Assembly: GCA_965247685.1 (NCBI GenBank) | Contig: OZ252021.1 | Location: forward strand, 180,001 to 212,000 | From: Bdellovibrionales bacterium | GTDB lineage: Bacteria > Bdellovibrionota > Bdellovibrionia > Bdellovibrionales > UBA1609 | Reading direction: 5' to 3' | Length of the DNA stretch: 32,000 nt | Shown here: positions 3,019 to 32,000 of the stretch, in pieces | How positions within the stretch are numbered: position 1 is the first letter of the stretch | Layout: each line of letters starts with the position of its first letter | Program-made: the position numbers and the translations under genes | Notes under the pieces: generated by a model | The model's database searches: none | Seen by the model: only the letters and a program-made list of their open reading frames with translations | Told to the model about the DNA's origin: nothing

Positions 3019-3133
3019 CAATATTTGGACGATCATGTCCAATTCTGGACACTCCTATCCAAAATAAAATCCTTTTTACACTGTTTTGAACGCCCCCTCA
3101 TTTGCTTTTTATATTTTGTAAAGGAGGTTCCTT

Positions 3134-3729: not shown

Positions 3730-3734
3730 TCTCC

Positions 3735-4578: not shown

Positions 4579-5035
4579 AGACTATAAACATTACTTATTT
4601 ATTTTTTTAGGAATAGTTTTGCTGTCCTTATTTTTTATATGGATTCAATCTAGCAAAAATATTCCATCCGATGACGATATTATTTTTCAAATATCTGATA
4701 ACATTCCAGAAGGATTTGTCATGGTACCCATTGAACTAGAAAATCATGAATCTATCAGCGACTTGATTACTTCACACGGGGTAGTGGACTTATACTACCG
4801 CCCTTCTCCTCATTCTCAACCTTTAAAGATTGCCCGAGCCATACGTATTATTCGTCTACAACCCTTTCGATTTGTCGTATTGATCCCAGAAGAAAAAATT
4901 TCTACTTTTCTTTCTTCATCTCTTCATTTTTACGCTGTAGTTCAAAATATTAATAAACAAGGGGTGATTGTTTATGGTAAGAAGAAAAAACGCTCTATCA
5001 CTATCGAAGAGGAGAATACGTTCAATGAAATGTAA
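4550..5035 (+). CDS. membrane-anchored protein resembling the C-terminal part of CpaB/RcpC (Flp pilus assembly)
   Basis: 161 aa. N-terminal TM YLFIFLGIVLLSLFFIWI, then IPEGFVMVPIELEN...ITSHGVVDLY...ARAIRIIRL, reminiscent of the CpaB G.r.vsv..d....pGd.VDv motif pattern. No SAF domain is visible. Assignment tentative. Confidence 0.4.
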   Translation: MNSINHLFFKDYKHYLFIFLGIVLLSLFFIWIQSSKNIPSDDDIIFQISDNIPEGFVMVPIELENHESISDLITSHGVVDLYYRPSPHSQPLKIARAIRIIRLQPFRFVVLIPEEKISTFLSSSLHFYAVVQNINKQGVIVYGKKKKRSITIEEENTFNEM

Positions 5036-6011: not shown

Positions 6012-6025
6012 AACATCTAGTGCAT

Positions 6026-6694: not shown

Positions 6695-6876
6695 TTTAAA
6701 GACCTTTAAAAACTAAGGCTTATATAAGCTCTAAGATGCTATCCACCCATTAAACAGTAAAATTTACATAAATTAAAGCTTCTTTTTTATCTTTTTTCGA
6801 CTCTTATAAAAGACTATAAGATAAAAAATTGTGAAAAAGCTAATATTTGAGACAAAATTTGCCGAACTGAAATGTG

Positions 6877-9269: not shown

Positions 9270-10004
9270 ATGAACAAAAAAGAAAATCCTTGGTTAAACA
9301 TTGCCTTTAATATTATTCTCCCTGTCGTAATTTTAAATTATGCCTCTCAGACTGTACCAGTACTTACACCTCTTCATACTCTTTTGATTGCTCTCAGTTT
9401 TCCTATTGTTTATGGTCTGCTTGATTACATCAATAACAAGCACAAAAATCTCTTATCTATTATAGGAGTTCTGAATACTTTGTTGACAGGAGGCTTCGCT
9501 CTTTTCACCTTAGATGGTTTTTGGTTTGCAGTAAAAGAAGCAGCTATTCCATTTACTTTAGGCGTAGGAGTTTTAATCTCTTTATTTACAAATACACCAT
9601 TGATGAAATGGTTCGTTCATCGCTCATCTATATTCCGAGTTGAAGTGATTCTTTCTCGTCTGGATTCAGAATTAAAAAAACAACATTACGAAAATCTCAT
9701 TAAAAAATCTACTCTCTATTTGTCTTGTTGTTTCTTTTTGAGTTCTATTTTAAATTTCATATTAGCACGTCGTATTTTTAAAAACACACTACCTCAAAAC
9801 TCCTCCTTAACAGACCATCAGATTATGCTCAATGAACAAATAGCGGACATGACATGGGTTAGTTTCTTAGTAATTGGAGTGCCTCTAACTGTTATTTCTG
9901 TTTGGACAATGTGGTGGTTTATGTCAGAAGTTAAAAAACTCACCTCTTTATCTTTAGAAGAAGTGATGAACATGGAATTTCAAAAGAAAAAAGAAACTCA
10001 ATAA
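9270..10004 (+). CDS. multi-pass inner-membrane protein (possibly VC0807-like family)
   Basis: About 244 aa with five to six hydrophobic helices. N-terminus MNKKENPWLNIAFNIILPVVILNY. The ORF track begins at TTG 9261; ATG 9270 is preferred. Confidence 0.6.
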   Translation: MNKKENPWLNIAFNIILPVVILNYASQTVPVLTPLHTLLIALSFPIVYGLLDYINNKHKNLLSIIGVLNTLLTGGFALFTLDGFWFAVKEAAIPFTLGVGVLISLFTNTPLMKWFVHRSSIFRVEVILSRLDSELKKQHYENLIKKSTLYLSCCFFLSSILNFILARRIFKNTLPQNSSLTDHQIMLNEQIADMTWVSFLVIGVPLTVISVWTMWWFMSEVKKLTSLSLEEVMNMEFQKKKETQ

Positions 10005-10009
10005 TCGAT

Positions 10010-10615
10010 ATGCCAACACGAAAGTTTAATCCTGAAAATATTCCTCAGCCTATTCTTAAAACTTCTCACCCATTACTCGCTCCTTCTTCTACAGAATGCT
10101 GGGACCTTGAAATTGGATGCGGTGATGGAGAATTCAGTTTCAATAGAGCCATCAATCATCCTGATAAAAATATCATTGCCATTGAAAAAACAAGAAATAA
10201 AATTCAAAGACTCCAATTAAAAGAAAATCCTCCAAAAAATTTATGGACTCTTCATACCAATGCCGTATGGTGGGTGAGTCACTATGTTCCACCAATATCT
10301 TTGGATAATATTTTCATCCTTTACCCGAATGTGTATAAAAAGAAAAAACAAGCTAACCTCAGATGGGTGAATCGCCCTTTTTTGCACTTCTTATTGGAAA
10401 GGCTTAAAATGAACGGTTATATTGAATTTCGAACTAATGAACTTTTTTACTATCAAGAAACAAAAGAGAGAATGATTCAAAAATTTCCTTTTATGAAGTG
10501 TGTTGAGGATAAAAAAATACCTCCTACACATAATCCAGAAACAACATATGAGCGAAAGTATCTCACCCGAATGCACTGCTTTGCTTTGAAATTCTTAAAA
10601 CAGGCTCATGAGTGA
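10010..10615 (+). CDS. trmB: tRNA (guanine46-N7)-methyltransferase
   Basis: 201 aa. SAM-binding LEIGCGDGEFS, IAIE, a NIFILYPN-type block and YERKY near the C-terminus are typical of TrmB. Confidence 0.75.
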   Translation: MPTRKFNPENIPQPILKTSHPLLAPSSTECWDLEIGCGDGEFSFNRAINHPDKNIIAIEKTRNKIQRLQLKENPPKNLWTLHTNAVWWVSHYVPPISLDNIFILYPNVYKKKKQANLRWVNRPFLHFLLERLKMNGYIEFRTNELFYYQETKERMIQKFPFMKCVEDKKIPPTHNPETTYERKYLTRMHCFALKFLKQAHE

Positions 10616-10616
10616 T

Positions 10617-11006
10617 TTATAAAAAAAGTTGTTGCTCCAAGGGAATACTGTATACCTCCTTTTGCTCCCTCTCTTTTATTCTTTGTTCAAGGAATTTCTT
10701 TTTTAAAACACTCTTACTAAAGAGTCCTGGATGCGTGTATATTTGAAATATTCTCTCTGCTTTGTCTTGATGATTTTCAAAAACTCTCTGATTCAAAAAC
10801 TGTAACTTCAGTTCTTTCTTTCTTTTTTCTCTTTTTCCTTTTTCTAACACATAGGATTTTTGAGATTGCATCTTTTCTTTTTTTCTACTCTCAGTTTGAT
10901 CAATATACTCTTCAAAATCTACCTGCCTTTGCTTCCACAAGGACTCTCTTGAAAAACTTGTCTCTACAGTACCCATCACAACAAATAGAATAATAATATA
11001 AAGCAT
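10617..11006 (-). CDS. membrane-anchored Lys/Glu-rich hypothetical protein
   Basis: The ORF track extends to 11066. ATG at 11006 is preferred: AGAGG lies 5 nt upstream and it gives N-terminal TM MLYIIILFVVMGTV. The rest is highly charged. Confidence 0.4.
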   Translation of the reverse strand: MLYIIILFVVMGTVETSFSRESLWKQRQVDFEEYIDQTESRKKEKMQSQKSYVLEKGKREKRKKELKLQFLNQRVFENHQDKAERIFQIYTHPGLFSKSVLKKKFLEQRIKEREQKEVYSIPLEQQLFL

Positions 11007-15478: not shown

Positions 15479-16912
15479 TTAGCGAGGGAATGTGCAGGTA
15501 AACTTAGATCCTTTTCCCCTTCTACGACTTGTGAGATAAACATGACCTCCATGTTTTTCCATAACTTGTTTCACAATAGCAAGCCCTATTCCTGTACCAC
15601 CCTTTTCACGAGATCGATCTTCTTCCACACGATAAAATCTTTCAAAAATACGATGTTGATGTTGCAAAGGTATACCCTCACCATCATCTTTGACCGTTAA
15701 TAGAATAAAGTGAGGATGTTTCTCCCAAATAATATCAATTTGTGTTCCTGCCGGAGTATATTTAACTGCATTATAAACCAAATTATATAAAACCTGCTCC
15801 AACCACTGACGAGAAGCCAATACAGTCTCAGCATGAAAAGTATAATGAATATTATGCTTTTCTGAAGGGATAGTTTCACTTGTCACAAATGTAATTTCTC
15901 TCGTATTAATTTCTTGTTTATCTAATGCAGAAATAGAATCAATATGAGATAAACTTAATAAATCATCAATCAGATTCATTAATCGTGTCAGATTACGGCT
16001 AATAATATCTAAAAATTGTTGGATTTGATCATATTTTTCTCTTTTAAAATCTTCATTAATGGTTTCAACAAAACCCTTGATAGAAGTCAGGGGGGTTTTT
16101 AATTCATGAGATACACTGCTCACAAAATCAATTTGACTTTTTTCTGTATTTTTTATCTCTGTTTTATCAAACAACACAATAATAACACCATTTTTCTCAT
16201 CTAAATCATGAGCCAAAGGAGAGATGGAAACTTCAAAAATACGATGCTGATTATATTCACTGACATTTAAAGCAACTTCTAATTTTAAAGATAAACCGTT
16301 TTCTAAACATTGATCACACCCTTTTAAGATATCGTGTGAAAAAATAACATCTTGTACAGGCTCCTTCAGTTGTGCTTTTGGAAACAAATTTACACTTTGT
16401 GGATTAAAAAATATAATATTTTTGTTACTATCCACTGCGATAATAGAATCTGATACAGAAGCAGCAATCGCTTCTAATTCCGCTTTTTCATAAGCTAATT
16501 GCAAACTTGTTTGTTTGATATTTTTATAGATTAAATGCAAGTTTTCATCAATAATATGAAAAGTTTCATGATCAATATCCGCTTCTCCTTTTTCAAAAGT
16601 TTGCAAAGTTTTAAGAGAAATATCTTTTGCGGCAGATATCTGGGTTAATTTTTTAATTTTCTCATTAGCTTGATAAAAAGGCTTTAAAAATAAAGAGAGA
16701 ATAAATAATAACAAAATAAAACTTATAACAAATCCGATTAAAATCAGAAAAATTAAAAAATAAGACAAAAACTCTTTTGGGATATGAGGCGTAACGACTT
16801 TCTCAATCAAAACAAAAATTAAAAGCGAATAGACAGAAAAAACAGCAACAGATAAAAATAAATATTTCTTAAAAATTCTAAATAGAGAAGAATAAGGAAA
16901 CTTATTATTCAT
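15479..16912 (-). CDS. phoR: phosphate regulon sensor histidine kinase
   Basis: 477 aa. Two N-terminal TM helices, a PAS-like region, H-box SHELKTPLTSIKGF, N-box YNAVKYTP, and G-boxes DDGEGIP and GGTGIGLAIVK. Overlaps phoB by 8 nt. Confidence 0.85.
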   Translation of the reverse strand: MNNKFPYSSLFRIFKKYLFLSVAVFSVYSLLIFVLIEKVVTPHIPKEFLSYFLIFLILIGFVISFILLLFILSLFLKPFYQANEKIKKLTQISAAKDISLKTLQTFEKGEADIDHETFHIIDENLHLIYKNIKQTSLQLAYEKAELEAIAASVSDSIIAVDSNKNIIFFNPQSVNLFPKAQLKEPVQDVIFSHDILKGCDQCLENGLSLKLEVALNVSEYNQHRIFEVSISPLAHDLDEKNGVIIVLFDKTEIKNTEKSQIDFVSSVSHELKTPLTSIKGFVETINEDFKREKYDQIQQFLDIISRNLTRLMNLIDDLLSLSHIDSISALDKQEINTREITFVTSETIPSEKHNIHYTFHAETVLASRQWLEQVLYNLVYNAVKYTPAGTQIDIIWEKHPHFILLTVKDDGEGIPLQHQHRIFERFYRVEEDRSREKGGTGIGLAIVKQVMEKHGGHVYLTSRRRGKGSKFTCTFPR

Positions 16913-17627
16913 TGTTTATATAACCAATTCTATAGCCGACACCTCGGACAGTTTCAATCATTTTACCATACTCTCCAATCTTCTTTCGTAGCACAGATGT
17001 ATGAGTGTCTATGGTTCGACTCGTCACATTGATATCTTCCCCTTGTATGTAAGAAGCTAGATTTTGCCGAGAAAGAACTCTACCTTGATTTTTTAAAAGC
17101 GCCTCTAAAAGCAAAAATTCTGATAGTGTCAAAGAAACCTCTTGATCTTTGATAAAAACCTTAAAAGCACTTCGATCCAAAGTCATATCTCCGATATTGA
17201 GCTGATTTTTTGGACTAGAATCCGAAACCAACATATCTCGTCTGCGCAACAAACTTGCCACCCGCGCTAAAAATATCAACACATCAAATGGTTTAACAAT
17301 GTAATCATCAGCTCCATTTTCTAAAGCACTAATAATATGTTCAGGTTCGGATTTCGCTGTCACAAATAAAATAGGTGCAGAACCTGCAGGATGAGATTTT
17401 TTTCTTACTAAAGATAAAAGTTCAAAACCATTCATTCCTGGGAGCATCCAATCGAGAATAAGTAAATCAAATGTCTGATTCTCTAAAATATTATGAGCAG
17501 ACACTCCATCTACAGCTTCTTCCACTTGGTAGCCTTTGCGTTTTAGATGTAAAGACATCAACTGACGAATATCATATTCATCTTCTACCAAAAGAATAGA
17601 GGATTTTTTTGTGTCATTCTCCGCCAT
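16905..17627 (-). CDS. phoB: OmpR/PhoB-family response regulator
   Basis: Start placed at ATG 17627 (MAENDTKKSSILLVEDE). Receiver domain with DWMLPGMNG and VTAK. Winged-helix output with RTIDTHTSVLRKKIG and VRGVGYRI. The longer track ORF overlaps phoU. Confidence 0.88.
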   Translation of the reverse strand: MAENDTKKSSILLVEDEYDIRQLMSLHLKRKGYQVEEAVDGVSAHNILENQTFDLLILDWMLPGMNGFELLSLVRKKSHPAGSAPILFVTAKSEPEHIISALENGADDYIVKPFDVLIFLARVASLLRRRDMLVSDSSPKNQLNIGDMTLDRSAFKVFIKDQEVSLTLSEFLLLEALLKNQGRVLSRQNLASYIQGEDINVTSRTIDTHTSVLRKKIGEYGKMIETVRGVGYRIGYINNE

Positions 17628-18324
17628 GACGCACATCATACCCTGTGTTGAGGAAAATAATATCTTCTGCAATATTGGTCGAATGATCTGCAATTCTTTC
17701 TAAACCACTACTAGCCACAATAAATTCCACACCTGTAGGAATAAGATGATTATGATCTTTCATCATCTTTTGTGACTGTTTTTTAATTTGAATCTGCCAA
17801 GAATCCACAATATCATCCATAGCTAATACATCTTTTGAAAGCTGAAGATCTTCGTTAATAAAAGCCTTTAAAGTAAGACGAACCATTTCAATGGTCGACT
17901 GAAACATTTTATTTAATAAATCATGACAAGGTTGAGTAGCCTCTTTTATTTCCATTCTTTGAGATTTATGAGCAATATTAATAGCTAGATCTCCCATACG
18001 CTCCAAGTCGATACTCGCATATATGCAAGTAAGAATCAGCCTCAGATCTTTAGCTACGGGAGCTTGACGTGCCAAACCCCGAAAACATGCTTTTGAAAGT
18101 TTCAGTTGTAAGGTATTAATTTCAAATTCTCTTTGCTTCATGATCACCAATTTTTCGTTGGCTTGCTCAGGATTCATAATAATAAATTGAGCATCTGAAA
18201 TTGTTTTTTCCACACTAGTGCCCATAGTACTGATCAAGTCCTTCATGTGACCCAATTTCTCATCTAAAATACTTCGAAACTGCTCCGTATTCTTATTTTT
18301 TTTTCTTGCACTCTGTATACCCAT
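17614..18324 (-). CDS. phoU: phosphate signalling complex protein PhoU
   Basis: 236 aa with the duplicated PhoU repeat: DLERMGDLAINIA and GLERIADHSTNIAEDI. Confidence 0.9.
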   Translation of the reverse strand: MGIQSARKKNKNTEQFRSILDEKLGHMKDLISTMGTSVEKTISDAQFIIMNPEQANEKLVIMKQREFEINTLQLKLSKACFRGLARQAPVAKDLRLILTCIYASIDLERMGDLAINIAHKSQRMEIKEATQPCHDLLNKMFQSTIEMVRLTLKAFINEDLQLSKDVLAMDDIVDSWQIQIKKQSQKMMKDHNHLIPTGVEFIVASSGLERIADHSTNIAEDIIFLNTGYDVRHGGE

Positions 18325-18380
18325 AATTAACCCCTGATTTTTACATTGATTTTAATAGTTTGCAACTCGCACTCCATGAT

Positions 18381-19154
18381 TTATCCAAAACGACCTGTAA
18401 TATACCTTTCAGTCCGTACATCTTTAGGGTTTGTAAACAATCTAGATGTTTTATCATACTCCACCAGATCACCATTAAGTAAAAAAGCAGTCCTATCCGA
18501 AATGCGAGAAGCTTGTTGCATATTATGGGTCACAATAATCAAAGTGACCTTTTGAGTGAGGGTTCGGATCAATTCTTCAATACGCATTGTCGAGACAGGA
18601 TCAAGCGCTGATGTCGGCTCGTCCATCAATATAATAGAGGGATCAATTGCCAAAGTGCGAGCGATACAAAGCCGTTGCTGTTGCCCTCCAGAAATGCTTG
18701 TTCCTGGCCGTTTTAAAATGTCTTTGACTTCATCCCAAAGTGCAGACTGCACTAAAGACTGCTCAACTTTTTCTTGTAATGCAGACTTATTTTTAACACC
18801 AAGTAGCCTGAGCCCTAAGGCTACATTATCAAAAATACTTAAACCTGGAAAAGGATTAGGTTTTTGAAAAACCATACCCACTTTTCTTCGAATCATCACA
18901 GGGTCAGAAGAAGAAGCATAAATATCCTCATTGTGTAAAAAAACTTGCCCCTTCACACGAGCATGAAGCGTTTCTTCGTGCATGCGATTGAGACATCGAA
19001 TAAAGGTAGACTTTCCACAACCCGAAGGACCAATAATAGCCACTACTTTATGTGCATACACACTACAACTAACATTTTTAACTACTGCATTCGATCCAAA
19101 ACTTGCCGTCAAATTCTTTACTTGCAATAAAACTTCTTTATCTACTGAACTCAT
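18381..19154 (-). CDS. pstB: phosphate ABC transporter ATP-binding protein
   Basis: 257 aa. Walker A GPSGCGKST, PstB-typical FQKPNPFP, signature SGGQQQRL, Walker B ILMDEPTSALD. Confidence 0.95.
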   Translation of the reverse strand: MSSVDKEVLLQVKNLTASFGSNAVVKNVSCSVYAHKVVAIIGPSGCGKSTFIRCLNRMHEETLHARVKGQVFLHNEDIYASSSDPVMIRRKVGMVFQKPNPFPGLSIFDNVALGLRLLGVKNKSALQEKVEQSLVQSALWDEVKDILKRPGTSISGGQQQRLCIARTLAIDPSIILMDEPTSALDPVSTMRIEELIRTLTQKVTLIIVTHNMQQASRISDRTAFLLNGDLVEYDKTSRLFTNPKDVRTERYITGRFG

Positions 19155-20001
19155 TCGTATAACCTCTTCGATATATGAAAATGCTGGCTCGAACTAAAAG
19201 ATTAATCAAAAATACAAATACAATTAACACTAAAGCTCCACTCCATGCTAAATTTTCAAGCTCTTCAAAACCACTCTTTGCAAATTCATATATCTGCACA
19301 GGCAATGTGGAAATCGGATCACCTAATTTTTGAGAATAGAATTGATTCCCTAAAGCTGTAAAGAGCAAAGGAGCTGTTTCTCCAGAAATTCTTGCTATAG
19401 ACAAAATAATACCTGTCACCAACATAGATGCCGTTCCAGGAATTAAAATATTCATGATCATCTTCCACCGAGGCAGCCCTAGAGCCAGCCCAGCTTCTCG
19501 AATATGTTGAGGAATGAGTTTTAAAATTTCTTCTGTGCTTTTAGCCACAATAGGAAGCATAATAAAAACTAGAGCCAATGCCCCTGCATAAGCAGAAAAT
19601 CCATAATATACGACAACAAGATGATAGACAAAAATTCCTATCACAATAGAAGGAACACTAGTAAATAAATCTACTGTAAATCTTAAAATACGACTCATCC
19701 AGTGAAAAGAATACTCACTCATAAAAATACCAACTCCCATCCCCCAAGGAATTCCTATTAAGCTGGCCATACCCACAACGACCATACTGCCAACAATAGC
19801 ATTTCCCATTCCACCACCCGCTTCACCAGGGGGGCGGGGAACATCAGTAAAAAAATTAAAACTCAGCCCTTCCATACCTTTGGAAATAATAAAAATAAAA
19901 ATAAAAACAAAAGGAATTAAAGCAACAAAAGATAAAAAAGACAACACACCCATCATCCAGAGGCTAAAGTATTTTCTGTAAATATTTCTTGTAATGAACA
20001 T
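19138..20001 (-). CDS. pstA: phosphate ABC transporter permease PstA
   Basis: 287 aa polytopic membrane protein with the EAA-type loop REAGLALGLPRWKMI. Position in the operon is after pstC and it overlaps pstB by 17 nt. Confidence 0.9.
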   Translation of the reverse strand: MFITRNIYRKYFSLWMMGVLSFLSFVALIPFVFIFIFIISKGMEGLSFNFFTDVPRPPGEAGGGMGNAIVGSMVVVGMASLIGIPWGMGVGIFMSEYSFHWMSRILRFTVDLFTSVPSIVIGIFVYHLVVVYYGFSAYAGALALVFIMLPIVAKSTEEILKLIPQHIREAGLALGLPRWKMIMNILIPGTASMLVTGIILSIARISGETAPLLFTALGNQFYSQKLGDPISTLPVQIYEFAKSGFEELENLAWSGALVLIVFVFLINLLVRASIFIYRRGYTNEFSR

Positions 20002-20013
20002 AATAAAAATTCT

Positions 20014-20973
20014 TTATGAGATAGAAAATTTCCTTTTAGTTTTCCAGGCAAATAACAATGAAGAGGAGTGAACTATTATAGATATTAAAAATAAAGCCAG
20101 CGCAATGGCTGTCAAAGATGAAAGATGAAGAGCACTATCAGCTTCTGCATATTGATTAGCTAAAATACTCGCCATCGTTTGAGCCGGTTCAAAAAGCGAA
20201 AGACTCAGATTCGGTTTATTACCAATAACCATTGTGACGGCCATAGTTTCTCCAAGAGCTCGGCCCAACCCCATAATAACAGCTCCTAATATCCCCGTCT
20301 GCCCCCCTTTAATAAGAGCATACTTAAACATTTCCCATCTAGTCGCACCCATTCCAAGTACAGCCTCACGATGAGAATAAGGGATAGATCGAAACACCTC
20401 CTTGCAGATAGAAGCAATAGTGGGTGTAATCATAATTGCTAAAATAATACCTGCACAAAGCATGCCTACCCCATACTGAGGTCCTTTAAAAAAAGGAAGA
20501 AACGAAAAATATTTTCCTAAAAACTCTTGAACAGGAGATCGAATAATAGGTGCGAGAAAAAAAACTCCCCATATTCCATAAACAATAGAGGGAATCGCCG
20601 CTAACATTTCCAAACCAAAGTTGAGAGGGCGAGCAAGCCACTTCGGAGCAAGTTCATTTAAAAAAAGAGAAACACCGACACTTACAGGTACAGCTATCAA
20701 TAATGCTAAGATCGAAGAAACTACAGTTCCCCAAATCATAGCTAAAGCTCCAAAGTCATTCAACCAGCTATCCCAGTTAACATTCACAAAAAATGAAAAA
20801 CCAAATTGTTTTAAAGCTGGAAGTGCTTCCTTAAAAACAATAGAAAATAAAGCTAAAAAGGAGACAATTACTAAAAGAGCCAGAGATTGCAAAAAATAAA
20901 AAAATAAGCGATCACTGATATGAATATCTTTTTTTGATTTCTTTGAATTTTTAAAAAATTTAAGGAGAAACAT
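20014..20973 (-). CDS. pstC: phosphate ABC transporter permease PstC
   Basis: 319 aa polytopic membrane protein with the EAA-type loop REAVLGMGATRWEM. Lies between pstS and pstA. Confidence 0.9.
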   Translation of the reverse strand: MFLLKFFKNSKKSKKDIHISDRLFFYFLQSLALLVIVSFLALFSIVFKEALPALKQFGFSFFVNVNWDSWLNDFGALAMIWGTVVSSILALLIAVPVSVGVSLFLNELAPKWLARPLNFGLEMLAAIPSIVYGIWGVFFLAPIIRSPVQEFLGKYFSFLPFFKGPQYGVGMLCAGIILAIMITPTIASICKEVFRSIPYSHREAVLGMGATRWEMFKYALIKGGQTGILGAVIMGLGRALGETMAVTMVIGNKPNLSLSLFEPAQTMASILANQYAEADSALHLSSLTAIALALFLISIIVHSSSLLFAWKTKRKFSIS

Positions 20974-23089: not shown

Positions 23090-24241
23090 ATGTTAGAAAC
23101 TCTATTAACTAATAAAACCACTCCTCAACCCTTTCACCCTTTGAATCAACCTATAGATTCTATTGTGACCGAAGGAATTAAATATAGTGGTTCTAAATTA
23201 AAATTACTCCCCCATATTCTTTCTATTGTTCGTTCCTTGCCAGTTAGAAATATTTTTGATGGATTTGCAGGAACAACAAGAGTCAGTCAAGCTTTTGCAA
23301 AATATGGCTACAAAGTTATCTGTAATGATCAAGCTTTATGGTCTAAAGTTTTTGGTGAGTGCTATCTGAAAGGAAAACAAACTGCTTTATTAGAAGAAAA
23401 ACTAGATTACTTGAATCATCTCAAAGGACATGAGGGCTGGTTTACAAAAAATTATGGAGGAGTATCGAACAATGGACTTTCCGTTAACTCGGATGGCAAA
23501 AAAAAAGTTTGGCAAATTCATAATACCAAAAAACTAGATGCTATCCGACCTAAGATAGATAAAATCTCTGAAAACTCTATTGAAAAATCTATACTACTAA
23601 CCAGTCTGATTTCAGCCTTAGATAAGGTGGATAATACCTTAGGACATTATGCTTCTTACTTGAGGCAGTGGTCTCCTCGCTCTTTTAAAACAATGGAGCT
23701 TAAAATGCCTCTTATGAAGTCTATACCTTCTCACCATAAAGTGATGAATAAAGATATATTTCAGGCTTTATCTCAAGTGAAAGCTGATCTTTCTTACTTT
23801 GATCCACCTTATGGATCGAATAATCAAAAGATGCCTCCTTCTCGCGTTCGTTATGCTTCTTATTACCATATCTGGAAGACCATTTGCCTTAATGATAAAC
23901 CGAATCTCGTAGGTCAATCGAATCGAAGAGAAGATTGCAGTGATCGAAAAACAGGTTCTATTTTTGAAGAATTTAGGAAAAATAAGGAAGGAGATTTTAT
24001 CGCTTTGAAGGCTATAGAAAAGTTGATTCAAAAGTGCTCTTCTCGGTACATTTTACTTTCCTACAGTAATGGAGGAAGAGCTGCTAAAGAAGACATATGC
24101 CGAATCATTAAGGAGCATAGTCGAAAAGCTCATATATTTTCCATTGATTATAAGAAAAACGTGATGGCAGGAATGTGTTGGACTTATGATTGGATTAAAA
24201 GAGATAAAAATATAGAGTTTTTATTTTTAATTGAAAAATAA
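23090..24241 (+). CDS. N6-adenine DNA methyltransferase, Dam/D12 class (alpha-type motif order), apparently orphan
   Basis: 383 aa. N-terminal KYSGSKLKLLPHI (the Y.GSK motif of the D12 class), motif I IFDGFAGTTRV, catalytic motif IV SYFDPPYG (DPPY encoded at 23801-23812), C-terminal ILLSYSN block. No nuclease-like neighbour. Confidence 0.8.
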   Translation: MLETLLTNKTTPQPFHPLNQPIDSIVTEGIKYSGSKLKLLPHILSIVRSLPVRNIFDGFAGTTRVSQAFAKYGYKVICNDQALWSKVFGECYLKGKQTALLEEKLDYLNHLKGHEGWFTKNYGGVSNNGLSVNSDGKKKVWQIHNTKKLDAIRPKIDKISENSIEKSILLTSLISALDKVDNTLGHYASYLRQWSPRSFKTMELKMPLMKSIPSHHKVMNKDIFQALSQVKADLSYFDPPYGSNNQKMPPSRVRYASYYHIWKTICLNDKPNLVGQSNRREDCSDRKTGSIFEEFRKNKEGDFIALKAIEKLIQKCSSRYILLSYSNGGRAAKEDICRIIKEHSRKAHIFSIDYKKNVMAGMCWTYDWIKRDKNIEFLFLIEK

Positions 24242-24993: not shown

Positions 24994-26160
24994 ATGTACA
25001 AAACAAATATTATCATCTTATCTTTAATAATCTCTATAAGTTTTTCACACTACTTGTACGCAAATCAATCTTGTTCATCGACATTTTCAAAAATACCTAC
25101 AACAGAAGGTCAACCGCATTATATGAAAAAAGGTTTTTATGATGGATTAGGTGAAGTTAACGAATTAACTAAATTGGGAAAACACTTGAGAAACAGTTCT
25201 ATAGACCCGAAAAAAACTAATATTAAATACCTGAGACCTTTTATCCAAAAACATATCCATCATATTCAACAAGGCCTCATAGCAACTCATCAAAATCATA
25301 AACTGGATCAATTAAACGCACTTGAGAAGAAAGCCTTAGAGCAAATAACAAACGAACAAATCACTCTTCATTGGTGGCTGTTATTTAATATTAAATTAGC
25401 TTGGCTGGCAACCCGTTCTTCTGATATTTTTGAACGGAAGTTAGAGTTTGAGTTCTTGGACAAATTTAAAAATTATAAAGGACTCACATATTATATTGAA
25501 AAAAACAAAGATGACAACGAAGTTCTTTATCTTATAAACAAAGCTCTTAATTCTTTCCCAGAAAAAATAATTCTACCCACAACTTCCCAACTTGGAATAT
25601 TAGCTTTAAATAGACCTTCAAAAAATGGATTAAATATTATTCCCGTTGAACTCTTTAATCAAAAAAAATCTTTGGATGGTACCACTTCATCTCCTATTGA
25701 GGCTTTTTTACATAATCTGAAACATGTAATAAAATTAGATTATGGAGTAATACTTTTTCCAAAAAATCCAGAACTGAATAGACAAATAGTTTCTCATATA
25801 GAAAAACTACCAACAATAGCAAAAAAGAAAAAAGCAGAGGTTATTTATTTTATTCTCACACATGAATTACTTCCAGAGGAACGTCCAACAATCCATCAAA
25901 TTGTAAACAGCCAAGATTTATTACGAATAATAAGCTCATCGTACAGTATTCTAGATCCCATGGTTATCTTCACTGAAGCTCAAATTTTAAATACTTTAAA
26001 TGATCAAAATATAGATATTTACTCCTTAGGAAATCCTAAAAAAAATGAATCAGACATATTATCTTATAGATATAATATGTTGATAAAAGAAAGTATAAAT
26101 ATTTTTACTCAAACAGCTCGTAAAGCTTTTAAGATGCATTTGCGTACAATGCACTTTTAA
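24994..26160 (+). CDS. exported hypothetical protein (388 aa), no recognisable domain
   Basis: N-terminal signal-like MYKTNIIILSLIISISFSHYLYA|NQ. A long uninterrupted ORF in an AT-rich context. No motif recognised by eye. Confidence 0.6.
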   Translation: MYKTNIIILSLIISISFSHYLYANQSCSSTFSKIPTTEGQPHYMKKGFYDGLGEVNELTKLGKHLRNSSIDPKKTNIKYLRPFIQKHIHHIQQGLIATHQNHKLDQLNALEKKALEQITNEQITLHWWLLFNIKLAWLATRSSDIFERKLEFEFLDKFKNYKGLTYYIEKNKDDNEVLYLINKALNSFPEKIILPTTSQLGILALNRPSKNGLNIIPVELFNQKKSLDGTTSSPIEAFLHNLKHVIKLDYGVILFPKNPELNRQIVSHIEKLPTIAKKKKAEVIYFILTHELLPEERPTIHQIVNSQDLLRIISSSYSILDPMVIFTEAQILNTLNDQNIDIYSLGNPKKNESDILSYRYNMLIKESINIFTQTARKAFKMHLRTMHF

Positions 26161-26247: not shown

Positions 26248-27285
26248 TTAGTCAGCTCTCTTCATGCTATTGAAAGCTCTTGCACAGGCAGAAAAAAGAC
26301 CAGTTCCAACCTCTCTCTTATTCGAACTCCCTAAGAGATTGTCTTTGTTAGCTGGCAACCCATTTTTTGCTTCTTCTAATAATTGAAGCATTTTATAAAC
26401 TTTTTGCTCGAAAAGAGAAAGAGAGAAAACCCAATTCCATTTTGCACTGGACTTCTCAGAAGGCCACGTAGATTTTTTTAACACTTGCTCGGGTGTGTAT
26501 CCTTGAGAATTGCTAATGTCTAATCGAACTGGATTTCGAAGAAGAAGACGAGCGGTCTCCAAATCAGCATATTGACTTGTTAAGTGTAACACCATATCTC
26601 CTCTATTATTTTGAGCATTGAAATCAGTTGTGTGATCAATGAGTAATTGTATAAATTTTTCTCTATATTCTGATAAAGACATTTTCCTCCAGAAATTTAA
26701 TAAAGGAATAAGTTTCATAAGAGCTGTGTTGCCATTCAGATCTCTTACCTGAGCATTCAAGCCATATTTAAAAAGTAATTCAATAATATGCAGGGGAAAA
26801 TGAGGCAATGCTGTGCCTTCAGTAGCTCTTATAAGAAGATGCCGTTTCTCGGTTTTCTTAAATCGTCCTTGTTCCGCTGGAAAGAGTATATTAGGGTCAG
26901 CTCCATTGTTTAGCAACATTTTTATAGTCGTAAGGTTAGTGTCCAAAATATCTTCTTCTGATCCATTTGTATTTTCTAATTGCGAAAAAACTTCCTCTAC
27001 ATAAGCTTGGTTTATAAGAGCTTGTTGCAGAAGAGTATATCCATTTTCATTGATATCATTTATTTTATCCGACGACTCTCTTACGATAAGGACTGCCTTA
27101 TCAAAAAACTCTTTTACATCTTGGCTTGACTCAAGATTTAATGGCCTCATGGCATAAATACTTGATGGAAGGGCATCATCATACGTGCTTGGTGGATGGG
27201 GGGTAGACGTGCTTGAATAGGCACTTGAATGGGCATACATGCATAGGTTGAGTAGAATAAAAATTGATAATATTTGTTTTAACAT
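26248..27285 (-). CDS. exported ankyrin-repeat protein (ANK copy 1, divergent orientation)
   Basis: 345 aa. Signal-like MLKQILSIFILLNLCMYAHS|SAY. ANK-type segments NGYTLLQQALIN, DLNGNTALMKLIP and NNRGDMVLHLTSQYADLETARLLLRN...DISNSQGYTPEQV. Confidence 0.75.
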   Translation of the reverse strand: MLKQILSIFILLNLCMYAHSSAYSSTSTPHPPSTYDDALPSSIYAMRPLNLESSQDVKEFFDKAVLIVRESSDKINDINENGYTLLQQALINQAYVEEVFSQLENTNGSEEDILDTNLTTIKMLLNNGADPNILFPAEQGRFKKTEKRHLLIRATEGTALPHFPLHIIELLFKYGLNAQVRDLNGNTALMKLIPLLNFWRKMSLSEYREKFIQLLIDHTTDFNAQNNRGDMVLHLTSQYADLETARLLLRNPVRLDISNSQGYTPEQVLKKSTWPSEKSSAKWNWVFSLSLFEQKVYKMLQLLEEAKNGLPANKDNLLGSSNKREVGTGLFSACARAFNSMKRAD

Positions 27286-27744: not shown

Positions 27745-27881
27745 ACTATGTGATTATTATATATATACTCTAGTTAGCTTGATTATATTGAACTGCACAA
27801 AGGACAGTTATGAAAACTTATGTTTCTGATTATTATGGGGTTGTTTTTAAGTAGAATATTGTTATAAGGAATATAATCAAT
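27745..27881. repeat. leader repeat, copy A (shortened) of the ANK cassette
   Basis: Aligns with 29000-29104 and 30985-31158: ...attattacatacatactc.agttagcttgat.atattc... then acaaagg.cagttatgaaaacttatgtt. Copy A lacks about 45 nt present in copies B and C. Confidence 0.8.
27810..27854 (+). other. conserved 14-codon upstream mini-ORF (MKTYVSDYYGVVFK-stop), copy A
   Basis: ATG 27810 with AAAGG upstream and TAG at 27852-27854. A near-identical copy lies at 31088-31132. In copy B its first five codons supply the start of the ANK gene. Confidence 0.45.
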
Positions 27882-28508
27882 GTGAGAAACTTAATAAAAT
27901 TATTCGTTAGTTTATTCACTCTTTTGAGTTTGTCAGCAATCGGAACAATAATATGTTTTACTGCTTATGCAGAAACATCAGAATATCGACTTCCCTCAGA
28001 TGAAAAAACACCAACACGTCACTTTCTCTTAAATAGAAAACGAACAACTCGAAAAAAGATAAAAAGGTCAAGTCTCAGAAGAAGACAAGAGGGAGAACAA
28101 GGAAAGCTCTCTAGAAAAAGGAAACGACAGCAAGAAATAGAAGAAAGGCAACTTCTCTCAGCATCAAAGCAACTTCTCTCAGCATCAAAGCAACTTCTCT
28201 CAGCAGTTAAATCTGGAGATATTCAAAAAGTTAACAAAATTTTGTCAAAAAAAAGAGTAGATCTGAGTATCCCAGGTATAGACGGTCGAACAGCTTTACA
28301 TTGGGCAGCCGCTGAAGGTTATGAAGGTCTGGTACGATCTTTCCTTAGACGCGGAGCTCCATTAATTATCCCAGATAACAAGGGTCGAACACCTTTAGAT
28401 TTAGCAGCCAAACGAGGTCATGAACGTGTGGTAGACATTCTCCTTAAACACGGGGCCGCAGCCTCAGGTGGAAACAGTTGTGCAGCAGCTATTATCGGTT
28501 TCATATAA
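27882..28508 (+). CDS. exported ankyrin-repeat protein with NLS-like basic tract (ANK copy 2, about 3 ANK repeats)
   Basis: GTG start aligned with the ATG of copy 4. Signal-like MRNLIKLFVSLFTLLSLSAIGTIICFTAYA|E. Basic tract NRKRTTRKKIKRSSLRRRQEGEQGKLSRKRKRQQ. ANK repeats GRTALHWAAAEGYEGLVRSFLRRGA and GRTPLDLAAKRGHERVVDILLKHGA. Confidence 0.8.
   Translation: MRNLIKLFVSLFTLLSLSAIGTIICFTAYAETSEYRLPSDEKTPTRHFLLNRKRTTRKKIKRSSLRRRQEGEQGKLSRKRKRQQEIEERQLLSASKQLLSASKQLLSAVKSGDIQKVNKILSKKRVDLSIPGIDGRTALHWAAAEGYEGLVRSFLRRGAPLIIPDNKGRTPLDLAAKRGHERVVDILLKHGAAASGGNSCAAAIIGFI
28149..28211 (+). repeat. 21-bp in-frame tandem repeat, 3 copies (QLLSASK QLLSASK QLLSAVK)
   Basis: caacttctctcagcatcaaag occurs exactly twice (28149-28169 and 28170-28190). 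A third copy diverges in its last 5 nt (28191-28211). Confidence 0.95.
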
Positions 28509-28514
28509 AGGAAA

Positions 28515-29089
28515 GTCATAAGTTTGTAGATATGATCTGTGAATTTATGGATTAGGAATCTAATCCTAAGAAGTCAGATAACGGTGGAATTGACGGCTAG
28601 GCTAATAGAAGAAACACACCTATTCAAATAAAGAATCATAAGAATAAAGTTGGAAGACTTAAAATTCAAAAGTTTTTAGGAGCAATAACCAATGATGATT
28701 CTGGTATATTTGTAGCTTAGAAATTCAGTCCCTCTGCTTATGAATATAAGACTAAGATTAAAGATAGAAACATAAAGTTCATTGAAGTGAAAGTATTTTA
28801 GGAAGCCTTTTAATATCAGAGAAACGTAGTGAAAAATACGAGAAGTTATATAAGAAAAGAGTGAAAAAAAGCTTAAACCTCATCACTCCATGGAAAGAAA
28901 AGAAGATCGTATCAACATCATTGTCCAATAACTGTGTAAATCTTTCACTGAATTATCACAGTTTAATGGTTCACTTCACCATATAATTATTACATACATA
29001 CTCCAGTTAGCTTGATAATATTCATCTCTTACCTTATAGGTAAACTAACTTGCTCAGTATTAATCGCTTGGACTGTACAAAGGTCAGTT
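28515..29089. repeat. ANK cassette spacer plus leader, copy B
   Basis: Alignable end to end with 30615-31087: gtcataagtt.gtagat.atgatctgtgaatttatgg...ggagcaataaccaat.atgattctggtatat...cactgaat.at... Carries an extra segment of about 99 nt (about 28771-28869) that is absent from copy C. Confidence 0.85.
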
Positions 29090-30643
29090 ATGAAAACTTA
29101 TGTTATCGGAACGATAATATTTTTTACTGCTTATGCAGGAGCAGGAGAATTAGAAGATCGAGAAAAGAGGCTTCTCTCAGCAGTTAAATCTGGAGATATT
29201 CAAAAAGTTAACAAATTTCTTTCAGAAGAAAGAGTAAATCAAAATATCCAAAATATCAAAGATAAATGGGGTCGATCAGCTTTACTTATAGCAACTGCAA
29301 ACGGCCATGTTAGTATAGTAAAACTCCTGCTTGAAAAGGGAGCAAAGCCAAATATCCCAGATGAAAGGGGTCGAACACCTTTACATATAGCAACTCACAA
29401 TGGTAATGCAGATACGGTACGAATTCTCCTCGAACACAAAGCAGATCCGAATATCCAAGATAACATGGGTGAAACAGCTTTACATCTGGCAGTCAAAGTA
29501 GGTTTTTTTAATATAGCACAACTCCTCCTCAGACACGGAGCAGATCTAAACATCCCAGATAAAATGAATCGAACAGCTTTACTTATAGCAACTGCAAACG
29601 GCCATGTTAGTATAGTAAAACTCCTGCTTGAAAAGGGAGCAAAGCCAAATATCCCAGATGAAAGGGGTCGAACAGCTTTACATTGGGCTGCCGCTGAAGA
29701 TTATGAAGGTTTGGTACAAACTCTCCTCGAATACGGAGCAGATCCGAATATCCAAGATAAAATGGATCTAACAATCTTACATTTAGCAATTCTCGGAGGT
29801 AATGCTGATACGGTACAAACTCTACTTGAACTCGAAGTAGATCCAAATATCCAAGACAGCAGATGGGGTCTAACAGCTTTACACCTAGCAATCCAAATAA
29901 GACCAAGCCCTTTAGATATAGCACAACTCCTCCTCAGACACGGAGCAGATCCAAATATCCAAAATAGAAAGGGTCAATCAGCTTTACATCTGGCAGTCAA
30001 AGCAGGTTTTTTTGATATAACACAACTTAATATAACACAACTCCTCCTCAGACACGGAGTAGATCTAAACATCCCAGATACAGACGGTCGAACACCTTTA
30101 CACCTAGCAGTTCTCAGAGGCAATACTGATATGGTACAAACTGTACTTGAAAAGGGAGCAAAGCTAAATATCCAAGATGAAATGGGTCGAACACCTTTAC
30201 ACCTGGCAGCCGCTGAAAATTATGAAAATGTGGTACAAACTCTCCTCGAACACGGAGCAAAGCCAAATATCCCAGATACAGACGGTCGAACACCTTTACA
30301 CCTAGCAGTTCTCGGAGGTAATGCTGATACGGTACAAACCCTACTTGAAAAGAGAGTAGATTCAAATATCCAAGATGAAATGGGTCGAACACCTTTACAT
30401 TGGGCTACTGCTGAAGGTTATGAAGGTGTGGTACAAATTCTCCTCGAACACAAAGCAGATCCGAATATCCCAGATAACATGGGTGAAACAGCTTTACATC
30501 TGGCAGTCAAAGTAGGTTTTTTTAATATAGCACAACTCCTCCTCAGACACGGAGCAGATCTAAATATCTCAGATAAAAATGGTCGAACAGCTTTCAGTTT
30601 AGCAACTCTCAGAGGTCATAAGTTAGTAGATTATGATCTGTGA
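29090..30643 (+). CDS. exported ankyrin-repeat protein, about 14 ANK repeats (ANK copy 3)
   Basis: Start placed at ATG 29090 (MKTYVIGTIIFFTAYA|GAGELEDREKRLLSAVKSGDIQKVNK...). The track ORF starts at TTG 29012, which lies in the leader repeat that is non-coding in copies A and C. Fourteen 33-aa G.TPLH.A...G....V..LLE.GA.PN modules. Confidence 0.85.
   Translation: MKTYVIGTIIFFTAYAGAGELEDREKRLLSAVKSGDIQKVNKFLSEERVNQNIQNIKDKWGRSALLIATANGHVSIVKLLLEKGAKPNIPDERGRTPLHIATHNGNADTVRILLEHKADPNIQDNMGETALHLAVKVGFFNIAQLLLRHGADLNIPDKMNRTALLIATANGHVSIVKLLLEKGAKPNIPDERGRTALHWAAAEDYEGLVQTLLEYGADPNIQDKMDLTILHLAILGGNADTVQTLLELEVDPNIQDSRWGLTALHLAIQIRPSPLDIAQLLLRHGADPNIQNRKGQSALHLAVKAGFFDITQLNITQLLLRHGVDLNIPDTDGRTPLHLAVLRGNTDMVQTVLEKGAKLNIQDEMGRTPLHLAAAENYENVVQTLLEHGAKPNIPDTDGRTPLHLAVLGGNADTVQTLLEKRVDSNIQDEMGRTPLHWATAEGYEGVVQILLEHKADPNIPDNMGETALHLAVKVGFFNIAQLLLRHGADLNISDKNGRTAFSLATLRGHKLVDYDL
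29277..30597 (+). repeat. 99-bp periodic ANK-module repeats including near-identical internal copies
   Basis: 29277-29377 is identical to 29574-29674 (offset 297 = 3 x 99). 29422-29580 is nearly identical to 30436-30597. A 15-bp tandem duplication lies at 30016-30045. Confidence 0.9.
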
Positions 30644-31158
30644 ATTTATGGGATGGGAATCTAATCCTAAGAAGCTAGGGAACGATGGAATTGACGGTTA
30701 GGTTAATAGAGGAAACACACCTATTCAAATAAAGAATCATAGGAAAGTAGTTAGTAGACTTGAAATTCAAAAGTTTTTAGGAGCAATAACCAATTATGAT
30801 TCTGGTATATCTGCAGCTTGGAAATTCATTCCCTCTTCTTTTGAATATAACGCTAAGATTAAAGGTAGAAAAGCTTAAACCTCCTCGCCCTATGGAAAGA
30901 AAAAAAGAGCGTATCAAAATCGTTTTCCAATAAATGTGTAAATCTTTCACTGAATGATGCATAGTCTTATAGTTTACTTCACTATGTAATTATTACACAT
31001 ACGCTCTAATTGGATTGATTATATTCATCTTTTACAGGTAAAGTAACTTCCTCAGTAGTAATCGTTTGGACCGTACAAAGGTCAGTTATGAAAACTTATG
31101 TTTCTGATTATTATAGGGTTGTTTTTAAGTAGAATATTACTATAAGGATGTAATCAAC
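30615..31158. repeat. ANK cassette spacer plus leader, copy C
   Basis: See copy B. The first 29 nt overlap the 3' end of ANK copy 3. Includes the full-length leader with the mini-ORF. Confidence 0.85.
31088..31132 (+). other. conserved 14-codon upstream mini-ORF (MKTYVSDYYRVVFK-stop), copy C
   Basis: ATG 31088 and TAG at 31130-31132. Differs from copy A by one codon (GGG to AGG). It lies 26 nt upstream of the ANK copy 4 ATG. Confidence 0.45.
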
Positions 31159-32000
31159 ATGAAAAACTTAATAAATTTATTCGCTCATTTATTCACTCTT
31201 TTGAGTTTGTCAGTAATCGGGACAATAATATGTTTTACTGCTTATGCAGGAGCAGGAGCAGGAGTAGCAGCAGTAGCAGAATCAAAACAGCAACTTTCGT
31301 CACAATTAAACAACCGAGGAACTAAACTTCTCTTAGCATTGAAATTGGGAAATCTTGCAGCAGTTATGAAACTTTTTTCAGAAGAAAAAACATTAATAAA
31401 TCCGAATGTCAAAGGTGGTATATTGGGTCAAACAGCTTTACACCTAGCAGCCGAAAAAGGGATTTTAGGGATAATAATATCCCTAATCGAGAACTACAAC
31501 GCAAAACTAAATCTCAAAGATAACAAAGGTAAAACAGCTTTACTTATAGCAATTGAATCAGGTCATGCAGATGTGGCGCTACTTCTAATTACAAAGGGAG
31601 CAGATCTAAAGAGCTCAGATAATAATGGTCTAACACCTTTACTTGCAGCAATTAAAGTAGGTCATAAAGGTGTGGTAGAAGCTCTATTTAATAATGGAAT
31701 AAAAGATCTAGGCCAAAATAAAATGGGTTACACAGCTTTGCATTGGGCAACTCTCTACGGTCATTTAAAGATAATGAGGTTTTTAATCACCCTCGGCGAT
31801 GGCGAAGAAAAAAAACTAGATGCCCTAGATGCCAAAGATAAAGGAGGTCTAACACCTTTAATGGGAGCTGCCAAACAAGGTAATTCAGGTGCGGTACAAC
31901 TTCTACTTGAGTACGGAGCAGATTCGAATATCCCAGATAACGGGGGTCTAACAGCTTTACATTGGGCAGCTTTCTTTGGTCATGAACATGTGGTAGAAGC
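31159..32000 (+). CDS. exported ankyrin-repeat protein, 3' end outside the window (ANK copy 4)
   Basis: Not in the ORF track because there is no stop inside the window. MKNLINLFAHLFTLLSLSVIGTIICFTAYA|GAGAGVAAVAESKQQ..., followed by at least 6 ANK modules (GQTALHLAAEKG..., GKTALLIAIESGHADVALLLITKGADL, GLTPLLAAIKVGHKGVVEALF, GYTALHWATLYGHLKIMRFLI, GLTPLMGAAKQGNSGAVQLLLEYGAD, GLTALHWAAFFGHEHVVE). Confidence 0.85.
   Translation, partial: MKNLINLFAHLFTLLSLSVIGTIICFTAYAGAGAGVAAVAESKQQLSSQLNNRGTKLLLALKLGNLAAVMKLFSEEKTLINPNVKGGILGQTALHLAAEKGILGIIISLIENYNAKLNLKDNKGKTALLIAIESGHADVALLLITKGADLKSSDNNGLTPLLAAIKVGHKGVVEALFNNGIKDLGQNKMGYTALHWATLYGHLKIMRFLITLGDGEEKKLDALDAKDKGGLTPLMGAAKQGNSGAVQLLLEYGADSNIPDNGGLTALHWAAFFGHEHVVE

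Follow-up and report, generated by a model that had tools for sequence, protein, structure and literature searches.

Ankyrin-repeat (ANK) proteins that carry export signals have been described from bacteria and from phages. The obligately host-dependent Chromulinavorax destructans (Dependentiae) encodes 98 ANK proteins, 78% of them with signal peptides (PMC6561590), and the ANK proteins (ANKp) of sponge-associated phages ('Ankyphages') carry signal peptides as well (bioRxiv 10.1101/608950). In the obligately host-associated Rickettsia, RARP-1 combines a Sec signal, an intrinsically disordered region and C-terminal ANKs, and is periplasmic (bioRxiv 10.1101/2022.02.23.481736), and Bd3460 of Bdellovibrio bacteriovorus is a signal-bearing 23-kDa self-protection ANK protein (PMC4686830). 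A different feature is documented for the ANK genes of Wolbachia, whose 5′ and 3′ ends are conserved and whose internal repeats are shuffled, duplicated and deleted by homologous and illegitimate recombination at short direct repeats; these genes evolve fast and now and then deteriorate (Siozios et al., 2013; PMC3563639). Here we describe a tandem array of three ANK genes with signal-like N-termini, designated g1, g2 and g3, at the end of a 32,000-nucleotide (nt) stretch of contig OZ252021.1 (positions 180,001 to 212,000; hereafter the window), together with a divergent ANK gene, g0, that lies beside it.

We consider it probable, if well short of certain, that g1–g3 are a recently expanded, lineage-specific tandem cluster of three exported ANK paralogues whose products most likely bind host targets. 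The first-pass annotation of this DNA had taken Sec-signal ANK proteins to be rare, a view that is outdated given the signals of the C. destructans, Ankyphage and RARP-1 proteins. It had also proposed two functions for the array, interaction with a host or prey and periplasmic inhibition or immunity. The first is the better supported, in part because no hydrolase or toxin partner gene lies nearby.

A repeated frame around variable ankyrin repeats

The three genes lie on the plus strand, each behind a copy of the same leader. Leader copy 1 (27745-27881), with a complete mini-open reading frame (mini-ORF, 27810-27854) and a Shine–Dalgarno (SD)-like TAAGGA, lies upstream of g1 (27882-28508), which encodes 208 amino acids (aa) from a GTG start. 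Non-coding spacer 1 (28509-29089), which includes leader copy 2 (about 28978-29089), separates g1 from g2 (29090-30643; 517 aa, truncated at both ends). Spacer 2 (30644-31158), also non-coding, includes leader copy 3 (about 30981-31158) with a mini-ORF at 31088-31132, and is followed by g3 (31159-32000), which the window end cuts and whose full protein, P0002, has 334 aa. The ORF listing bears out the coordinates first given for these genes and for g0.

That all four genes encode ANK repeats, as first annotated, is borne out by Pfam matches for each. With ANKs defined as tandem 33-residue helix-turn-helix units scoring above the gathering threshold of PF00023 or PF12796, Ank_2 matches g1, g2, g3 and g0 at 53.6, 521.4, 143.4 and 39.3 bits, respectively, against a cut-off of 27.3 (E-values 3e-14, 4e-160, 3e-42 and 1e-9). 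A family scan of the window compared its ORFs of at least 100 aa with Pfam or NCBIfam, minus two (658-1038, 18556-18867) that are nested in other genes or overlap them. The repeats are of the consensus eukaryote type. Their closest solved structures in the array are eukaryotic ankyrin-1/2 and DARPins, and AlphaFold2 (AF2) models them as solenoids of ANK helix pairs.

What g1–g3 have in common beyond these repeats is the DNA around them, as leader, signal-peptide DNA and a spacer of ~0.5 kb recur at 83–92% identity (BLAST). The signal end IGTII[C/F]FTAYA, which the first-pass annotation had found in all three tandem genes, is indeed common to them: the 25-mer coding for it occurs three times, against none expected from shuffled sequence, and a 28-mer of the leader also has three copies against none. 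The spacer was likewise correctly described as occurring twice and being alignable apart from an indel of ~99 nt, in that 28515-28770 matches 30615-30871 at 88% over 257 nt (E 4e-86) and 28867-29104 matches 30869-31102 at 83–84% over 239 nt (E 6e-60), with the intervening 96–99 nt (28771-28866) present in spacer 1 only. Spacer homology starts at 30615, within the 3′ end of g2. Leader and signal of g1 and g3 (27788-27972 versus 31066-31249) are 90% identical over 185 nt, leader copy 1 and 31066-31148 are 92% identical, and the g1 leader, which lacks ~47 nt that copies 2 and 3 carry, is alignable with the other copies only from about 27745. With these E-values, and with the k-mers absent from the shuffles, the similarity of the frame is far above what the AT-rich background would yield by chance.

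The spacers contain stop codons in all six frames and show no similarity elsewhere in the window, the non-coding frame has no Rfam match at E <= 1, and its folding stability is not in excess (z-scores -1.4 to +0.7). On these grounds we rejected the spacer as a decayed gene or a structured RNA. Promoter-like sites (19 versus 15.5 expected) and terminator-like sites (2 versus 2.3) are at background level.

The leader was initially counted three times, each with a 14-codon mini-ORF. While the leader 28-mer does occur thrice, the mini-ORF is complete only twice, at 27810-27854 (MKTYVSDYYGVVFK and a stop codon) and at 31088-31132 (MKTYVSDYYRVVFK and a stop codon). These two copies differ at one position in 45 nt, compared with about 10% in the flanks, a conservation that is not significant (rough Poisson P about 0.06). 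The mini-ORF shares its frame with g1, with one TAG and nine sense codons between them (27810-27971), and in copy 3 a 1-nt deletion puts it out of frame with g3. We found no evidence of a regulatory leader peptide, the mini-ORF being in frame at g1, out of frame at g3 and truncated at g2. It is perhaps what is left of an older, longer N-terminus or start; the SD-like AAAGG and its reuse as the start of g2 suggest that it is translatable.

Repeat content differs strongly among the three genes, as first observed: an N-cap is followed by 2 units in g1, 14 in g2 and 8 in g3, and no unit of g3 exceeds 77% identity with any other unit. Moreover, the similarity is mosaic, g1 resembling g3 in leader and signal (90%) but g2 in its N-cap (91%) and one unit (86%). 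Several units of g2 are internal duplications (nucleotide identity of r1 and r4 97%, r3 and r13 96%, r5 and r12 89%, r9 and r11 88%). The proposed contrast between a conserved export and regulatory frame and a divergent payload thus holds as a description (83–92% for the frame versus at most 77% for the g3 units), but a dedicated cassette mechanism is not needed to account for it. The pattern is what remains when genes have recently been duplicated in tandem and their 99-nt ANK units have then recombined unequally, with deletions in addition.

In outline, a unit consisting of leader, signal, ANK gene and ~0.5 kb of 3′ spacer was duplicated in tandem, and the copies of the non-coding frame now differ by about 10%. 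The present 2, 14 and 8 units arose by unequal recombination or slippage among the 99-nt units, and later deletions removed 114 nt and ~100 nt in g2, as well as 47 nt and 96–99 nt in leaders and spacers. Both the g2 3′ deletion and the spacer indel have short direct repeats at their junctions. Indels of 1 nt and 5 nt occur in the non-coding parts, and the coding indels are all multiples of three.

The second gene is a derivative cut at both ends. At its 5′ end, a 114-nt deletion has taken the mini-ORF from its sixth codon on, the SD-like TAAGGA and signal codons 1–19, and the gene now starts with the first five mini-ORF codons (MKTYV) in frame with the last 11 signal codons (IGTIIFFTAYA). Because of this deletion g2 has only a 16-residue hydrophobic N-terminus, made up of MK and 14 hydrophobic residues that include the AYA end; the SD-like AAAGG stands upstream of its start codon. 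At its 3′ end, ANK 'RGH' (GGTCAT) is joined, with 5 nt of microhomology, to GTCATAAGTT, which opens the spacer, and the ORF runs eight codons into spacer-homologous sequence before it ends in KLVDYDL and a stop. Owing to this fusion g2 is without the cysteine (Cys) tail common to g1 and g3. The last of its 14 ANK units is truncated. The 114-nt and ~100-nt deletions together produced g2, with the start of the upstream mini-ORF captured as its start codon. Neither a 517-aa nor a 543-aa form of g2 is in a collection of 15 billion proteins, even though g0, g1 and g3 are, and g2 is probably annotated as a pseudogene or uncalled in the public record.

The g1 product, identical to public protein P0001, consists of a putative signal (aa 1–30, ending AYA), a basic linker (aa ~50–85), the N-cap with 2 ANK units, and a tail ending in SGGNSCAAAIIGFI. 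That of g3 has a putative signal (aa 1–30), an (AG)n linker, the N-cap with 8 ANK units in full-length P0002, and a tail ending in SGGNSCRQIIHSI; AF2 gives helix 2–29, disorder at 30–40, ANK helix pairs and a low-confidence tail. Both genes contain in-frame micro-repeats, a perfect 21-nt tandem of 2.8 copies encoding QLLSASK in g1 (28148-28205) and GCAGGA repeated 5.7 times in g3 (31246-31279), the latter forming an Ala/Gly linker directly after the signal. These are likely slippage sites that alter linker length. Since g3 ends at ~32163, about 163 nt past the window, and only g1 and g3 have this signal among the called proteins of the contig, the array probably stops there and does not, as first supposed, run on beyond the window.

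We found no sign of the array elsewhere. With the g3 N-terminus as query, full HMMER over 1.84 billion representatives returned only g1 and g3, a word-indexed search of 5.8 billion protein clusters for this signal gave the same two, and neither collection contains homologues of g1–g3 that share their non-ANK parts. At the DNA level, the signal-end motif had no match in GTDB representative genomes and the leader motif none in JGI metagenomes. Nor was the same array in relatives, a case that the first-pass annotation had allowed for, seen at the loci examined: the relatives' loci around homologues of g0 and of a 388-aa neighbouring protein (both described below) are without such genes. A metagenome scan anchored on PstS found relatives at no more than 51% identity, and the closest GcvT relatives, at 56–58% identity, are in three 'Bdellovibrionales bacterium' metagenome-assembled genomes (MAGs), two of them with contigs of 1.0–1.4 Mb. 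The public g0, g1 and g3 proteins are all on one contig of 1,280,446 bp. Sponge-associated Bdellovibrionota MAGs of 1.24 Mb and 32% GC have been described as non-motile and as having the most ANK domains in their community (PMC9944714). The source of the window is probably a reduced (at least 1.28 Mb), low-GC, host-associated bacterium.

Probable export signals and possible partners

Sec signals cleaved by signal peptidase I are expected to have a positive n-region, an h-region of about 7–20 residues and small residues at -3 and -1 (AXA). By this heuristic, the N-termini of g1 and g3 have a basic n-region (MR/MK..K), an uncharged h-region of 21–24 residues and A-Y-A at -3 to -1 before E or G. 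The PstS ORF of the window has an N-terminus similar to theirs. From these sequence features we infer that they are signals of this kind, cleaved after AYA, and that the ANK domains would therefore act outside the cytoplasm. A lipobox in the signal (TIIC) was considered and rejected, the Cys being Phe in g2 and the context atypical.

The exported, fast-evolving products would, we suggest, bind targets in a eukaryotic host, with an NLS-like (nuclear localization signal-like) segment as an addition in g1. We favour host interaction because the genome is reduced, the relatives are host-associated and the repeats are eukaryote-type, and because the family is orphan and fast-evolving, no hydrolase, toxin or phage gene adjoins it, and g1 has the NLS-like segment. 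The latter (28031-28135, aa ~50–85) is a basic stretch, RKRTTRKKIKRSSLRRRQEGEQGKLSRKRKR, with a net charge of +14 over 30 aa and with 3 bipartite and 2 monopartite NLS pattern matches; it is not present in g0, g2 or g3. As for partner genes, no DD-endopeptidase, toxin or phage gene lies next to the array, whose neighbours are g0, the 388-aa protein and a Dam-like methyltransferase. The scanned window ORFs contain no peptidase S13 or penicillin-binding protein (PBP), and the window has a single wall enzyme, an Amidase_2, 21 kb away.

Several points weigh against this interpretation. First, the h-region of 21–24 residues could be an uncleaved signal anchor, and no secretion system that crosses the outer membrane is visible in the window, nor are there type IV secretion system (T4SS) genes in it. 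Second, a Sec signal may take an ANK protein no further than the periplasm, as with RARP-1 and Bd3460, and NLS-like runs are unspecific. Third, a ratio of non-synonymous to synonymous changes (dN/dS) of about 1, as reported below, is likewise the outcome of relaxed constraint, and g2, truncated at both ends, has neither of its forms in the public protein collection. Finally, the placement near Bdellovibrionota depends mainly on one marker at 56–58% identity.

The alternative that survives best, though we think it rather unlikely, is that the proteins reside in the periplasm and bind the cell's own envelope proteins, either as hydrolase inhibitors or immunity proteins like Bd3460 or as scaffolds like RARP-1 and Pseudomonas AnkB; the array would then be a set of such binders undergoing diversification. 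A putative Sec-type signal that is not accompanied by any evident second secretion signal suits such binders, and so does the Bdellovibrionota relationship (including a weak match to a MIDAS adhesin), Bd3460 being from the same group. In addition, the layout of g1, with signal, disordered linker and C-terminal ANKs, mirrors that of periplasmic RARP-1, and the conserved single-copy g0 family fits a housekeeping role in the periplasm. However, Bd3460 adjoins its DD-endopeptidase target, whereas the array has no gene for a peptidase, a PBP or a toxin beside it. Proteins with a fixed partner are normally conserved, but g1–g3 are without an orthologue, have dN/dS of about 1 and range from 2 to 14 in repeat number. 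The NLS-like segment has no obvious periplasmic use, and the top solved-structure matches include no specific similarity to Bd3460.

Could the array instead be evolutionary debris, that is, duplicated ANK genes decaying in a shrinking genome, their frame conserved merely by recency? By the Nei–Gojobori method, dN/dS was about 0.8–3 across all paralogue segment comparisons (pooled, about 7.5 synonymous and 38.5 non-synonymous differences), values that reveal no purifying selection on the sequence. The ratio of about 1 throughout, even in the signal (7 non-synonymous versus 1 synonymous difference), would be expected of such debris. So would g2, which is left with little of its signal and without its tail and whose protein is not in the public collection, the 0.5-kb non-coding spacers, unusual in a compact genome, the GTG start of g1, and promoter and terminator signals not above chance. 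On the other hand, ORFs of 208, 517 and 334 codons are intact at 34% GC; the probability of all three staying open under neutral decay is 0.016–0.001 for a per-lineage divergence of 3–5%, as estimated from the non-coding frame. Indels are multiples of three in the coding parts, with those of 1 nt in the non-coding frame, the 114-nt deletion of g2 kept the frame and captured a start codon with its SD-like AAAGG, and g1 and g3 have both kept the single-Cys tail motif SGGNSC despite an identity of only about 50% between their last repeats. Open frames combined with dN/dS near 1 fit functional genes whose sequence is diversifying or weakly constrained, against plain decay, if less so for g2. We thus regard debris as an improbable explanation of the array.

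It is extremely improbable, finally, that variation here is programmed, with the frame blocks (leader/signal and tail/spacer) as recombination handles for swapping ANK payloads between expression sites, much as gene conversion does in antigenic variation, and the mini-ORF as a translational regulator: non-coding blocks of 83–92% identity against coding payloads of at most 77% for g3, the mosaic similarity (g1 to g3 in leader and signal, g1 to g2 in the N-cap at 91%) and the one difference in 45 nt of the mini-ORF against about 10% in its flanks speak for it, but there are only three copies, all with start codons and leaders and none of them silent as a donor would be, the scanned window ORFs include neither a recombinase nor a reverse transcriptase or invertase, no significant inverted repeats, mobile-element ends or RNA structure were detected, the mini-ORF is conserved at P of about 0.06 only, does not share the frame of g3 and is broken in g2, and ordinary homologous or illegitimate recombination suffices, as in Wolbachia. 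Among the scanned ORFs and repeats of the window, none of the marks of a diversity-generating retroelement (DGR), a shufflon or a gene-conversion cassette system is seen.

A prophage or mobile-element origin of the array was also considered and rejected, as there are no capsid, terminase or portal genes and no tRNA, terminal or inverted repeats at its borders. The PHROGs matches near the array are confined to a DNA methyltransferase and to ANK-containing families that have no assigned function.

The separate g0 family, the tail cysteine and the neighbouring genes

The divergent gene g0 (26248-27285, minus strand) encodes a signal-bearing ANK protein of 345 aa and is not a member of the cassette, with which it had first been grouped. 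It belongs to a separate conserved family. We rejected it as a diverged copy of the cassette, since it has no DNA similarity to the array genes, and its protein has only generic ANK similarity to g3 (28%). In Pfam it also matches Ank_4 (7.7e-13). Its homologues (n = 12) are 39–51% identical and retain the signal-like N-terminal segment, after which the g0 of the window has an extra insert rich in Ser, Thr and Pro. AF2 with an alignment predicts a helix at 2–21 and a helical-repeat domain at 54–273 with a predicted local distance difference test score (pLDDT) of 85–93, and a Foldseek search with this model gave generic ANK and DARPin matches. The family is single-copy, with variable neighbourhoods, in related small-genome 'Bdellovibrionales' MAGs, some of its members being on the same contigs as the GcvT relatives. 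No genes of the g1–g3 type lie near the g0 homologues in the relatives' loci (for instance L163, homologue at 10001-10969, and L164, homologue at 10001-10972). In L164 the homologue is surrounded by tandem trypsin-like/Sel1 and subtilisin (S8)-HEAT-repeat proteins (593-6932 and 15582-20972), and therefore tandem expansion of proteins with eukaryote-like repeats seems common in the lineage.

There is one further feature that g0 shares with g1 and g3. Exactly one Cys follows the predicted signal in all three, as it does in eight of the nine g0 homologues examined, and it stands 8–16 residues from the C-terminus (survey of the g1 tail, 28455-28505; P0002 aa 320–334; g0, 26251-26320; homologues P0031-P0041). 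A near-C-terminal single Cys occurs in the g0 family in at least nine genomes. The surrounding motif is SGGNSC in g1 and g3 and [S/A]-C-x-R-x-F-like in the g0 family, and it is lost in g2. In g1 and g3 the Cys is 8–9 residues from the end, and the 7–8 residues after it contain no basic cluster. A CaaX or CTERM tail (GlyGly-, MYXO- or PEP-CTERM) was considered and rejected, the Cys not being at -4 and the signature of a transmembrane helix and basic cluster being absent; neither NCBIfam nor Pfam gave a sorting-domain match in the tails. We see it as a very doubtful proposition that the tail Cys is an undescribed anchoring, tethering or sorting signal for Sec-exported ANK proteins of reduced, host-associated Bdellovibrionota, or that the non-coding frame, including a mini-ORF start that can be translated, is a selected scaffold for payload exchange or re-initiation. 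If either were true, the locus would be a modular platform for effector diversification, beyond plain duplication. The locus is useful in any case for drawing attention to the single-Cys tail and to the family of g0.

The gene next to g0 (24994-26160, plus strand) encodes a 388-aa protein without a Pfam family, which in the public record has 368 aa and no signal-like N-terminus. Its homologues (~50% identity; L161, 10001-11146, and L162, 10001-11128) lie downstream of nrdA and immediately upstream of murB, which in L161 is followed by ddl; this nrdA/murB synteny is broken in the window. As a candidate toxin or hydrolase partner for the array the protein was rejected, being a conserved protein beside murB with no ANK gene within 10 kb of its homologues in the two relatives examined.

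Otherwise the window is a segment of bacterial chromosome (34% GC), with the housekeeping genes gcvH/gcvT, folD, mgtE, sohB, greA and phoR/phoB-phoU-pstBACS, and with genes for a glyoxalase-II-like hydrolase and the Dam-like methyltransferase. The latter (23090-24241, plus strand) is a D12-class N6-adenine DNA methyltransferase (Pfam 6e-22; PHROG DNA methyltransferase 4e-29) with no recognizable restriction partner among its neighbours. The weak MIDAS match mentioned above is that of a 452-aa protein (6874-8232, plus strand) to a Bdellovibrio adhesin family, which it scores at 109 bits where the cut-off is 700. Four ORFs (3385-6011, plus strand) with hydrophobic N-termini and no family assignment precede the gene.

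Comparison with known ankyrin systems

Dot/Icm ANK effectors of Legionella and Coxiella are without Sec signals and use C-terminal T4SS signals. Like g1–g3, they bring eukaryote-like ANKs to a host-associated bacterium. NCBIfam returned weak matches to the AnkY, AnkH and AnkX models (NF0430xx), which run through the repeats and are all far below the curated cut-offs; against the Legionella AnkY model, for example, g2, g3 and g1 score 262, 96 and 36 bits with a cut-off of 600. Specific similarity to Legionella Ank families was thus not found, and neither was specific similarity to Bd3460. With the latter, the array genes share the small size of a putatively signal-bearing ANK protein and a Bdellovibrionota-related organism. 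However, Bd3460 is encoded by one gene copy, in synteny with bd3459 for the DD-endopeptidase that it targets, and periplasmic predators have conserved it, whereas g1–g3 are without an adjacent endopeptidase, without conservation and variable in repeat number. Both marks of a Bd3460-type protein, an adjacent PBP4-family DD-endopeptidase and a single-copy orthologue in relatives, are therefore missing from g1–g3.

The three-part layout of RARP-1 is, by description and with a putative signal, that of g1. In contrast to RARP-1, a single gene conserved across its genus, g1–g3 are an unconserved tandem, of which g2 and g3 have no long disordered region.

In how they evolve, the array genes are like the Wolbachia ANK families, with conserved gene ends and shuffled internal units. 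Nonetheless, there are differences: many of the Wolbachia genes are prophage-borne, whereas ours are adjacent paralogues that share non-coding scaffolds, in a different phylum, and they have putative signal peptides, a term absent from the account of the Wolbachia genes (PMC3563639).

The array has in common with the ANK proteins of C. destructans and the Ankyphages a putative Sec-type signal followed by eukaryote-like ANKs and a presumed role in host manipulation, and with C. destructans also a small, AT-rich, host-dependent genome and a lineage-specific expansion of paralogues. It is set apart by its scale, three paralogues and one unrelated ANK gene as opposed to 98 ANK proteins, by the lack of the phage context of the Ankyphages, and by the lack of detectable orthology to either family. 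The shared DNA frame and the single-Cys tail are undescribed for both. For the question of how reduced Bdellovibrionota deal with a eukaryotic host, the array supplies three candidate host-interaction paralogues, and it displays the steps by which such a family evolves: genes are duplicated in tandem, their 99-nt units are shuffled, stretches are deleted and a start codon is captured from upstream. Set beside these systems, the cluster is a lineage-specific example of a familiar, fast-evolving 'eukaryote-like' family and not a new class of system.

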